Made by a program: the position numbers and the translations under genes
Notes under the pieces: generated by a model
Told to the model about the DNA's origin: nothing
Databases searched by the model: none
The model's input: only the letters and a program-made list of their open reading frames with translations
Assembly: GCA_964400755.1 (NCBI GenBank)
Contig: CAYNVX010000001.1
Location: 1 to 45,460, forward strand
Length of the DNA: 45,460 nt
Direction of reading: 5' to 3'
Origin: an uncultured bacterium
Lineage (GTDB): Bacteria; Chlamydiota; Chlamydiia; Chlamydiales; SM23-39
In this document: one piece after another, positions 26,073 through 28,656 of the stretch
How the letters are laid out: each line of letters opens with the position of its first letter
Position numbering within the stretch: position 1 is the stretch's first letter

Positions 26073-27632
26073 TTAGATTCCTGTAGCTCTTCCTGCGGCT
26101 TCTTCTTCTAAGCTAGTTGTTGAGTCTGTTTCATCTGCTGATTCACCAGCATTTGGATAAAATTTAGTAATATAATTTGTTAAATCTCCTAATTCATCTA
26201 TGAGGTTCCCAGACTCTGTTTTATCCGCTTCCTTTATCCTTGTTTCAAAACTTTTAAGAAAAGAAAGAGCTTCTTTTTTCTTTACTAACTCAAAGGGGGG
26301 GCTATCGGCCATAAATTTCCACGCTCTTCCATTTGCCGAGAATTTTTCCTTTTTTAGAGTTATATTTATTTTTATTAAAGGTAAATCTACTTTGGCAAGT
26401 GCTGGGTATAAGTTCCTATTTTTTAGATTTATTTGTAAAACAGCACTAATTTTATAAGTGGATTCATCTTTTTTAATTATCTTGCTTTCAAGTAAATCAA
26501 TTTTAGAAATCATTGATGAAACTGCTAACGCTTGCATTACCATGGGGTCAATTAATGAACCTAAATATTCTTGTATTTGTAAGAATTTAAATAATATCTT
26601 TAATTCAGAATCATTAGAAACAAATTTATTAAATTCAGGAGAGTCATAGAATGCTAAAGCCGTTCTATAAGCCGCTCTCGCATCTTCAGGGAGAAGACCA
26701 TATTGTACAGAGGGATGATTTATAGTTTGACCTTTATATACAAAAGTTGTCGTTTGAGTATTATTGCTCCTGAAAGCATCTGCAATAAAATATTCATCAA
26801 GGTCTATTTGTGGTTTTTCTTCGCCTTCTTGTCTGAAATATTGTGATGTTTTTGTATCCTCAAAAGAATAATTCATAAATATAGTTGCTATAAGTTTTTT
26901 ATGATCTGTTTGAAAAAGAAATTCATCAATATTAGTGGGGTTTTTTATTAAATGTTTTAAGAATGTTTTTTTGTCAGTAATATCTTTTCCTAAAATCTTT
27001 ATTCTTTCTAAAACTAAGGATATTTCTTGAGGTTCTTTAATTTTAATTATTAGCTCAAATAAAAGAGAGGATTCTTCATCATTGTTACAGCTATCTAATG
27101 TATTTAAGAGTTGAATGATTGTTGCCTCATCTTTACACTTATCAAGAGCGTTTAAGAGTTTTTTAAAAGCTTCAACATCATCTTTACACTTATCAAGAGC
27201 GTTTAAGAGTTTTTTAAAAGCTTCAACATCATCTTTACATTTGTCAATTGCTGCCAGTACTTGGTATTTTGTATTTACATCATTAAGTCGAAGTATAGTC
27301 TTAGATAGTTTTGTTTTTTCTGGGTTATCTTTTGTATTCAAATGCTTTTTACTGACTTCGGATTTCCTTATTTTTCTAGCAAGGGCTAATGTGTTTTCAT
27401 GAAAAGCTTCTTTTGCAGCATTGTTAGCTCTAAACCATCGGAATATTCTTAATAACCAATTTGAGCTAGACCAGTTTGTTTTATTTGAATATAGATCTAA
27501 AGTATCGAAATTAAAAATTGCAGCTCTTAATTGGTCGACAGTTTTTATATTATTATTAGGGTTTTCTAAGAGTTTCATTCCCGTGGCAGTTAATTGATTT
27601 GAAGTAGTATAGTTAATGCTAAGTTTATACAT
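26073..27632 (-). CDS. Hypothetical protein with internal 17-aa tandem repeats and C-terminal G-R-A-T-G-I
   Basis: 519-aa ORF with its own promoter-like sequence and the SD AGGAAG. No signal peptide or TM segment. It contains the repeats LNALDKCKDDVEAFKK and ends ...EEEAAGRATGI. Confidence 0.65.
   Translation of the reverse strand: MYKLSINYTTSNQLTATGMKLLENPNNNIKTVDQLRAAIFNFDTLDLYSNKTNWSSSNWLLRIFRWFRANNAAKEAFHENTLALARKIRKSEVSKKHLNTKDNPEKTKLSKTILRLNDVNTKYQVLAAIDKCKDDVEAFKKLLNALDKCKDDVEAFKKLLNALDKCKDEATIIQLLNTLDSCNNDEESSLLFELIIKIKEPQEISLVLERIKILGKDITDKKTFLKHLIKNPTNIDEFLFQTDHKKLIATIFMNYSFEDTKTSQYFRQEGEEKPQIDLDEYFIADAFRSNNTQTTTFVYKGQTINHPSVQYGLLPEDARAAYRTALAFYDSPEFNKFVSNDSELKILFKFLQIQEYLGSLIDPMVMQALAVSSMISKIDLLESKIIKKDESTYKISAVLQINLKNRNLYPALAKVDLPLIKINITLKKEKFSANGRAWKFMADSPPFELVKKKEALSFLKSFETRIKEADKTESGNLIDELGDLTNYITKFYPNAGESADETDSTTSLEEEAAGRATGI
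27128..27251. repeat. In-frame 51-bp tandem repeat (two identical copies plus one degenerate partial copy)
   Basis: 27128-27178 and 27179-27229 are identical (CATCTTTACACTTATCAAGAGCGTTTAAGAGTTTTTTAAAAGCTTCAACAT). A third copy starts at 27230 and diverges. Confidence 0.95.
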
Positions 27633-27669
27633 TTATATTATCTTCCTAATTTATTCTTTCTTTACTTTT

Positions 27670-27698
27670 ATTATAACAAATAATTAATATAATGTTAA
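27670..27698 (-). promoter_or_regulatory. Predicted promoter of the 519-aa gene
   Basis: On the minus strand, TTAACA (27698-27693) is followed by a 17-nt spacer and TATAAT (27675-27670), the -10 preceded by TGT (extended -10). It lies ~35 nt upstream of the ATG. Confidence 0.45.
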
Positions 27699-27836
27699 TA
27701 AAATCTTTAATTATAATTAACTGTAATTAAGTTGTTTGTAAAATGAGGATTCTTTTATAAAAAGCTAATAACAAAGAACTTATGGCGCGACACCTGTAAG
27801 TCCTTTGATTATAGTATGTTTGGTTTGGTGGTAGGA

Positions 27837-28025
27837 TTAAATTCCAGCTGCTCTACCAGCTTCAGAAGCTTTTTGTGCAGTGTTCGTTAGTTCAATATAA
27901 ACAAGAACCTTTGATAAAGGGTTTCCAACGAAACGACGGTCCATTAATTCTTCAATAGAATCATTTGTCTCTTCTTCTTGATCAAACATCCAGGGGCTTC
28001 TTTGTCTTATAGTTGTTACTGGCAT
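27837..28025 (-). CDS. Small hypothetical protein ending G-R-A-A-G-I
   Basis: 62 aa, with the SD AAGGAG 11 nt upstream of ATGCCAGTA (MPVTT...). It is acidic and ends ...SEAGRAAGI. Confidence 0.55.
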   Translation of the reverse strand: MPVTTIRQRSPWMFDQEEETNDSIEELMDRRFVGNPLSKVLVYIELTNTAQKASEAGRAAGI

Positions 28026-28060
28026 ATTATTTTTATCTCCTTGTTTTATCTTATAAATAA

Positions 28061-28519
28061 TTAAATTCCGGCTCTTCTGCCAATATCAGTTGGGTTTGAA
28101 GGATATTGTTCTTCAAATTCAGCTAATAATCGAGCTCGTTCTTTTTTAAACCCTTCTAAGTTAATTGTTTGGGGTGGAACGGTTTCTAAAAAACCTATTT
28201 GTTTTGCCAAAAATTCCAAATTCCTTTGTGCCTGCTCTCTTGATTTCTTAGCAGATTTAACTGGATATTCTCGATCTGTGACTTTTGCAGCTAATGGTTT
28301 TTTAGTTTCAATAGGAGCCGGCATTTCTACTGCTTCAAGACCAATTAATGGTTTGAATGTTTGTATAGCACTAGAATTAGCTTTTGAGGCTAATTCTTCC
28401 AATAAACCTTGCTCTTGTTTTTTTCTTTTTTCATTGGCTTCTTCTACTATTCTGTCAACAAAGGCGCTTAATGGTTCGCCGATATCAAAAGATTGTGGGC
28501 CAAAAGTATCTACTGGCAT
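28061..28519 (-). CDS. Hypothetical protein ending G-R-R-A-G-I
   Basis: The ORF track starts at 28540, but AAGGAGG sits 5 nt before the ATG at 28519 (ATGCCAGTA, MPVDT...). That gives ~152 aa ending ...TDIGRRAGI. Confidence 0.6.
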   Translation of the reverse strand: MPVDTFGPQSFDIGEPLSAFVDRIVEEANEKRKKQEQGLLEELASKANSSAIQTFKPLIGLEAVEMPAPIETKKPLAAKVTDREYPVKSAKKSREQAQRNLEFLAKQIGFLETVPPQTINLEGFKKERARLLAEFEEQYPSNPTDIGRRAGI

Positions 28520-28656
28520 AATTTCCTCCTTATATATCAAACAATCTTTATATATTTTATAATAATCGTTAATTAATAGTAAAGATTTTATTAAAATTAA
28601 TATAATTAAGTATGTTAATTATCTTATTATTATGCATGTCCTTGATATACAGAGCA

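Follow-up and report, generated by a model that had tools for sequence, protein, structure and literature searches.

Short peptides at the very end of a protein can set its location and its lifetime, as is the case of degrons, PDZ ligands and cargo peptides. In the cargo systems of encapsulins and microcompartments, unrelated products of neighbouring genes carry a common C-terminal peptide after a flexible linker and dock through it on one partner; the encapsulin cargo peptides are longer and have several hydrophobic anchors (GSL-type). The E-block of Dot/Icm effectors and the Arg-rich tails of VirB/D4 are also unstructured C-terminal signals on unrelated effectors, in this case compositional over 20-30 residues. 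A much shorter motif, a class I PDZ ligand, is common to the C-termini of Map, EspI (NleA) and NleH1, unrelated effectors of enteropathogenic Escherichia coli (EPEC) (PMC3015060), and together with that of Salmonella SseM it is read with the free carboxylate (PMC3015060, PMC11253597). In protein degradation, ClpXP reads the six-residue MuA tag RRKKAI (PMC5143411), and in Chlamydia the selection of substrates by ClpX is tag-dependent, development depends on it and natural degrons have been postulated (PMC9601184). We have analyzed a stretch of 45,460 nucleotides (the window, meaning the whole of the DNA under study) from an uncultured bacterium of the Chlamydiales (SM23-39; assembly GCA_964400755.1, contig CAYNVX010000001.1) in which three consecutive orphan genes of the minus strand, here named A, B and C, all end in G-R-x-x-G-I followed directly by the stop codon. 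An original prediction had taken this end for a candidate new C-terminal tag family.

The three minus-strand open reading frames (ORFs) and their ends were confirmed. Gene A (28061-28519) codes for 152 aa, starting MPVDTF and ending NPTDIGRRAGI; its start is an ATG behind the ribosome-binding site AAGGAGG, and the ORF extends to a TTG at 28540 (159 aa). Gene B (27837-28025) codes for a small acidic protein (62 aa, pI 4.7) that starts MPVTTI and ends KASEAGRAAGI. It has its own ribosome-binding site, AAGGAG, and starts 35 nt past the stop of A, and the two genes probably form one transcription unit with A first. Gene C (26073-27632) is much longer (519 aa, ending EEEAAGRATGI) and is built of an N-terminus rich in Ser, Thr and Asn, an internal tandem repeat, an acidic linker and then the GRATGI tail. 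The tail codons are GGC AGA AGA GCC GGA ATT in A (28064-28081, minus strand; stop TAA at 28061-28063), GGT AGA GCA GCT GGA ATT in B (27840-27857, minus; TAA at 27837-27839) and GGA AGA GCT ACA GGA ATC in C (26076-26093, minus; TAA at 26073-26075). Numbering from the last residue as position 0, the invariant positions are G(-5), R(-4), G(-1) and I(0). A strong sigma-70-type promoter-like site precedes C (27670-27698, minus; TTAACA, 17 nt, TG-TATAAT; 11 of 12 matches) and a weaker one precedes A (28554-28583, minus; TTTACT, 18 nt, TAAAAT; 9 of 12 matches, a consensus match only). In A, B, C and a fourth orphan, D, described below, the frame-specific codon usage scored 0.46-0.59 bits per codon, and the conserved genes have on average the same score. 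Because of the ribosome-binding sites, the promoter-like sites and these codon-frame scores, which resemble those of conserved genes, we take A, B and C, which are lineage-specific, to be real and natively encoded genes.

Chance was rejected as the origin of the shared tail. When all six frames of the window were scanned (3533 stop-to-stop ORFs), GR..GI occurred three times and the three occurrences were the ends of A, B and C, so that, as had been claimed, no other ORF of the window ends this way; with relaxed forms of the motif just two more ORFs appeared, both short (45 and 47 aa) and outside the gene-like set. From the residue frequencies of the window (G 0.052, R 0.034, I 0.101) a given protein is expected to end in the motif with a probability of 9.5e-6, which matches the earlier estimate of about 1e-5. 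For three adjacent genes sharing four fixed residues the figure is ~5e-8 after a generous correction for multiple testing, in which we multiplied by all gene triplets and by all choices of four positions among six. As a control we compared 1416 neighbour pairs within 4 kb, taken from 494 gene-like ORFs of the window and of 38 related chlamydial loci. The only pairs with at least four of the six final residues identical were A/B, B/C and A/C (5, 5 and 4, respectively), and all the others had three or fewer. The same loci add up to 468 kb of related DNA (4655 ORFs), where GR..GI was found seven times in about 937,000 codon positions against ~9 expected from the 9.5e-6 figure. Only one of these lies beside a stop codon, and it belongs to an 8-residue stop-to-stop stretch, not to a gene-sized ORF. 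The motif is real and it is not a product of chance.

The conservation is at the level of the protein, as originally proposed, and both the alignment of the gene ends and the codon and hairpin tests bear this out. We aligned the last 60 coding bases and the 60 bases downstream of A, B and C. In this three-way alignment the identity was restricted to GGN AGA ... GGA ATY TAA T, the flanks being unrelated, and a recent segmental duplication or a gene conversion of the gene ends was ruled out, since identity stops at 18 nt plus TAA-T. Within the 18 tail bases the pairwise identity was 61-78% (counted by hand from the codons) and the first Gly codon differs in each gene (GGC, GGT and GGA in A, B and C). 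AGA, GGA and TAA, invariant in the three ends, are simply those that this genome (32% G+C) uses most for Arg, Gly and stop. Downstream of the stops, a similar 13-mer is found ~20 nt past those of B (AAACATACTATAA, 27803-27815) and C (AAACATCTTATAA, 26039-26051), on the minus strand and with no equivalent in A; it may well be a coincidence in AT-rich DNA.

An alternative explanation is that the conserved element is a nucleic-acid or translational one and not a protein tag, namely a hairpin, a terminator or the end of a mobile element overlapping the stop codon, or a nascent peptide like that of SecM, which would modulate termination or the coupling to the following gene. A terminator scan did flag small stems in the DNA that codes for two of the tails, that of A and (on the opposite strand) that of C; B starts within 35 nt of A; remnants of TnpB and HEARO elements are present in the window; and the R-A-G-I of the A tail is reminiscent of the R-A-G-P of SecM. 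To all this can be opposed that the flagged stems are no more stable than expected. We replaced the last ten codons at random by synonymous ones, drawn at the frequencies of the genome; the share of these resamplings that folded at least as stably as the real tail DNA was 24%, 51% and 67% for A, B and C, so a hairpin or terminator over the tail was discarded and this folding test gave no sign of a nucleic-acid constraint on the tail-coding DNA. Besides, the DNA flanks of the tails are unrelated, the stop context TAA-T is ordinary, the spacing from R to G differs from that of SecM and no Pro codon comes next, and C has no co-directional gene downstream to regulate. We consider this explanation highly improbable.

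Outside the tail the three proteins are at the background level of similarity. The absence of obvious similarity across most of their length had been pointed out before, and we found none that was significant. BLASTP among A, B and C gave no match, and Smith-Waterman scores of the proteins with the tails removed were compared with those of shuffled sequences. For A against B the p value depended on the gap costs (0.27 for standard costs, 0.035-0.06 for lenient costs); for B against C it was about 0.8, and the range for A or B against C overall was 0.10-0.86. A possible hidden homology between the ends of A and C (KKE..L..FE and YP.N, seen by eye) was not significant either (p = 0.10-0.16). Since everything else is at background, selection would be focused on the tail. 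At the N-terminus, MPV.T..FD is found in both A and B (p about 0.018 in a test chosen post hoc) and, because of this common start with identical ATGCCAGTA codons, the two genes are plausibly old tandem paralogues.

This similarity raises the possibility of a neutral relic. A, B and C would then be the products of old tandem duplications whose sequences have drifted too far apart to be recognised as kin, and the tail, with MPV.T as well in the case of A and B, would be simply what is left. The three genes are indeed adjacent, on one strand and of similar codon style, and the N-terminal match just described together with the marginal gapped similarity of A and B points in the same direction. However, all the rest is at background similarity and the synonymous sites of the tail are already scrambled, which makes the neutral survival of four identical end residues in three copies very unlikely without selection. 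In addition, the orthologue of C (see below) has a different architecture and no tail, which argues against C being a mere duplicate of A or B. Overall the relic is, in our view, quite unlikely.

We have looked for relatives of the three proteins in several collections. The 152-, 62- and 519-aa products are each a singleton in a public (NCBI-derived) protein collection. Pfam, NCBIfam, PHROGs, PADLOC and the PDB sequences gave no match at the curated cut-offs (best E-values 0.005-0.1). A word-indexed search of 5.8 billion proteins returned each of the three as its own only match, and in the case of B there was no other candidate with enough common words to be scored. A full phmmer search of C against 1.84 billion cluster representatives found C alone. 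The earlier statement that they belong to no recognised family thus holds for these protein and profile searches, and so does the one about the lack of a Sec signal or transmembrane segment, as a hydropathy scan detected no signal-like or membrane-spanning hydrophobic segment in A, B or C (maximum 19-residue hydropathy 0.70, 0.69 and 1.41).

As for the structure, the single-sequence AlphaFold2 model of C had a predicted local distance difference test (pLDDT) value of 39, and its last 28 residues (492-519) showed no regular structure. The model of A (pLDDT 66, predicted TM-score 0.23) consists of three long helices with low-confidence linkers between them, and these do not pack into a compact fold. 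There are seven acidic residues and no basic one among the 19 that come before the tail of C. The stretch ahead of the tail is polar or acidic and, from the low-confidence model of C, looks flexible or unstructured. Inside C there is a 51-bp tandem repeat (27127-27247, minus; 2.4 copies, 97% identical) that is in frame and encodes LNALDKCKDDVEAFKKL, a very recent expansion within an orphan gene.

The nearest available genome (L001) provides a view of the same site in a relative. At the corresponding position it has a 290-aa ORF, a 140-aa ORF and an OPT-family transporter gene. By its position the 290-aa ORF is an orthologue of C, the only one detectable for any of the three genes. Over the first ~70 residues the two proteins are 29% identical (E = 0.008, pairwise) and the promoter region is conserved as well (C, 27633-27780, minus, against 13490-13641, plus, of the relative: TTAAGATTTTATT.ACA ... 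TTGTTATAATAA), the promoter-like site of C being kept ahead of the 290-aa ORF. The regulation and the N-terminus have been kept and the body of the protein has been replaced. No counterparts of A and B were found in this genome. When the four orphans A-D were searched by tblastn in the 20 related loci that come from genomes (L001-L020) there was no match, only the pseudopilin-like gene at the flank being conserved. As the orthologue of C has no tail and A and B have no counterpart there, the tail-bearing state is specific to the lineage of the window as far as these data reach. Either the tail is an acquisition of C in this lineage or it has been lost in the relative. Considering the synteny, the 51-bp repeat and a conservation limited to the N-terminus and the promoter, A, B and C seem to be fast-evolving, insertion-borne genes.

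Our favoured reading, to which we give an even chance, is that the tail is a selected short linear peptide for recognition or docking, placed at the C-terminus on a flexible linker. We base it on the invariant residues in register with the C-terminus, on the scrambled synonymous sites, on the background similarity elsewhere and on the polar or acidic stretch upstream. G-R-x-x-G-I-COOH would be kept by purifying selection, and a single partner, common to the three proteins, would recognise it in register with the free carboxylate and bring A, B and C to one place or give them one fate. We infer that the tail binds such a partner. By analogy with the known systems, the partner might tentatively be sought in a peptide-binding domain of a host protein, met after secretion and following a PDZ-like logic. 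A bacterial AAA+ protease, for which the tail would be a degron like the RRKKAI of MuA read by ClpX, would be a less probable candidate, and a chaperone, a secretion component or an assembly hub of the bacterium an improbable one. The shared tail is a solid and well-controlled observation; its role as a tag is an unproven hypothesis.

Several results weigh against the tail being a recognition peptide. Among the ORFs of the 468 kb of related chlamydial DNA no further gene ends in the motif, and the members are only three, all at one locus of one uncultured genome. The 290-aa orthologue of C ends in KKYFKINN, without the tail, and no tail-carrying orthologue was found in which conservation over time could be measured. 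Should the three genes derive from a single one, the signal would be partly due to shared ancestry and they would not be three independent data points. The Pfam scans, which covered 38 ORFs of the window (nearly all of those of at least 100 aa), found no candidate receptor near A, B and C, be it a PDZ or TPR domain, a protease or a secretion gene. The conserved positions -5, -4, -1 and 0 fit none of the described C-terminal motif classes that we tried, and both structure models (A and C) are weak, single-sequence ones.

The PDZ-binding effectors are the first described system with which the tail can be compared. Like Map, EspI/NleA and NleH1 of EPEC and SseM of Salmonella, A, B and C are unrelated proteins of one host-associated bacterium with a common and very short end motif. 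This is a precedent for a more specific proposal, that A, B and C form a new family of secreted effectors and that after type III secretion the tail docks on a host PDZ domain as a class I ligand. The end of C, T-G-I, does fit the pattern S/T-x-hydrophobic-COOH, and the orphan status, the repeat in C, the insertion site and the lack of a Sec signal count in its favour. A weak hint from composition is that the N-termini of C and B rank first (tied) and third among 40 window proteins in their content of Ser, Thr, Asn, Gln and Pro. However, the class I pattern, noted originally for C, holds only there (Thr at -2) and fails as a common property, since position -2 is Ala in A and B; it is the position that defines the class that varies here (T/A/A), whereas the conserved ones are -5, -4, -1 and 0. 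The hydrophobic last residue, Ile in the three proteins, is the part of the pattern that they all share, and the PDZ rules do not call for the invariant G(-5), R(-4) and G(-1). The Pfam scans found no type III secretion genes or chaperones in the window, the secretion of A, B and C is hypothetical, the three genes are adjacent and not scattered as in EPEC or Salmonella, and the hosts of such chlamydiae are probably protists. A PDZ-docking effector family is, all considered, unlikely.

The degrons of ClpX, both the ssrA-type C-motif 1 and the MuA-type C-motif 2 (RRKKAI), are like the present tail in having six residues anchored at the carboxylate and in being, in principle, transferable. As a C-terminal degron, the tail would be the target of either a ClpXP-type AAA+ protease of the cytoplasm or a tail-specific protease, and the cell could dispose of A, B and C jointly, for instance when it passes from one developmental stage to another. 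The three proteins are predicted to be cytoplasmic, the six-residue tag is in register with the carboxylate, and R(-4), the small residue at -1 and the Ile at 0 would correspond to R(-4), A(-1) and I(0) of MuA (PMC5143411). Chlamydial ClpX picks its substrates by tag, and the postulated natural degrons (PMC9601184) would be in line with this reading. Against the MuA pattern, R(-4), G(-1) and I(0) are conserved here, but two Arg are found only in A and there is no Lys in any of the tails. The proposed likeness to RRKKAI extends to three of the six positions, and the rules for the ClpX motifs have been established only for E. coli (PMC5143411). Unlike those degrons, the tail has no di-alanine and a single conserved basic residue, and its two invariant glycines have no counterpart and no explanation as parts of a degron. 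The ssrA-type motif, (L/V)-A-A at the C-terminus, was rejected, as the tails end A-G-I or T-G-I; the chlamydial ssrA-type tag ends VAA (PMC9601184). No protease or adaptor gene was found nearby in the Pfam scans of the window. We place the degron on the unlikely side, ahead of the PDZ-docking effectors.

Other known signals were compared in the same way. With the cargo of encapsulins and microcompartments the genes share a neighbouring arrangement and a short common end peptide after a flexible linker, and this class was discarded when no Linocin_M18/encapsulin (HK97-fold) or microcompartment shell (BMC) domain appeared among the 38 ORFs scanned. The acidic block (EEE) just upstream of the tail of C recalls the type IV secretion signals; in contrast to these, the tail of A, B and C is a fixed hexapeptide, and no type IV secretion genes were seen here. 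SecM-like arrest peptides, the peroxisomal targeting signal PTS1, CaaX boxes and ubiquitin-like Gly ends were set aside because the conserved positions or the required neighbours do not fit. The tail can be assigned to no described class of C-terminal motif.

The broadest form of the original idea, a C-terminal tag family with multiple members, found no support, as no member beyond A, B and C appeared in the window plus the 468 kb of related DNA. It had been stated in advance that orthologues without the motif would speak against such a family; this is so for C, whose orthologue in L001 is tail-less, and for A and B no orthologues were found. The available data weigh mildly against a widespread family, judging from the related genomes at hand. 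A more restricted version would be that G-R-x-x-G-I-COOH is an undescribed transferable tag of a little-sampled chlamydial lineage, with a dedicated receptor and further, unlinked members in the genome; this we regard as doubtful, though possible. According to it, a pre-existing C would have acquired the tail and the newly arisen A and B likewise, and the receptor could be a part of the secretion or sorting machinery, a protease or a peptide-binding domain of the host. If it were true, an older protein, C, sharing its tail with two new neighbours (by gain, or by loss in the relative) would represent the modular transfer of a tag. Most candidate effectors in Chlamydiae have no recognisable features, and a new chlamydial tag, if real, would be a handle in the sequence to find functionally linked orphans and a pointer to their receptor. 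The tail of A, B and C is at present a well-controlled lead and not a demonstrated system.

The surroundings of the three genes are those of an ordinary chlamydial chromosome, with SecA, GroEL, enolase, MutL, RuvABC, GlgC and others. The GlgC of the window is 50-68% identical to that of Chlamydiales metagenome-assembled genomes (nearest matches 68% in a genome collection and 64% in a metagenome collection), which agrees with the Chlamydia-like organism that had been proposed. On the side of A the neighbour is a pseudopilin-like gene (28657-29097, minus) with a prepilin-type N-terminus, FLLIEILIAL. On the other side comes D (25322-26023, plus; 233 aa), the fourth orphan of the insertion, which is convergent with C and ends in YHKADRR, without GRxxGI, and then a gene for an OPT-family oligopeptide transporter (23266-25137, minus), the other border of the orphan insertion. 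Beyond it, a TnpB-like gene or fragment (21940-22794, minus; 284 aa) has a Cas12f1-like TNB domain (PF07282, 7.5e-24) and a weak OrfB_IS605 match, and is located in the variable region between the OPT transporter and a DUF1494 pseudopilin-like gene.

The comparison with related loci indicates how this arrangement may have come about. In L012, L013 and L015 a pseudopilin-like gene stands beside a metallophosphoesterase gene and is followed directly by two more pseudopilin-like genes, so that the three form a contiguous operon (2815-4808, 12886-14907 and 5300-7276, respectively). In the window (20376-29097) the operon is split by ~6.7 kb containing A, B, C, D, the OPT gene and the TnpB fragment, and L001 and L011 show intermediate states at the same site. 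Judged by this synteny, A, B and C are part of a variable, lineage-specific insertion that splits a pseudopilin operon of the Chlamydiales, and the site is an insertion hot spot.

Three other features of the window deserve mention. A transporter of the ShlB/FhaC type for two-partner secretion (39011-40864, plus; PF03865, 7e-26) has no obvious TpsA partner adjoining it, and a 415-aa orphan (42994-44241, plus) gave only faint PPR/Arm-repeat matches. HEARO is an RNA associated with HNH-endonuclease/IscB-type elements. A full-length match to it (Rfam RF02033; 86.3 bits against a gathering score of 83) is found at 1512-1767 of the plus strand, followed only by a 104-aa ORF (1872-2186, plus), and the two together may be a decayed IscB/OMEGA element.

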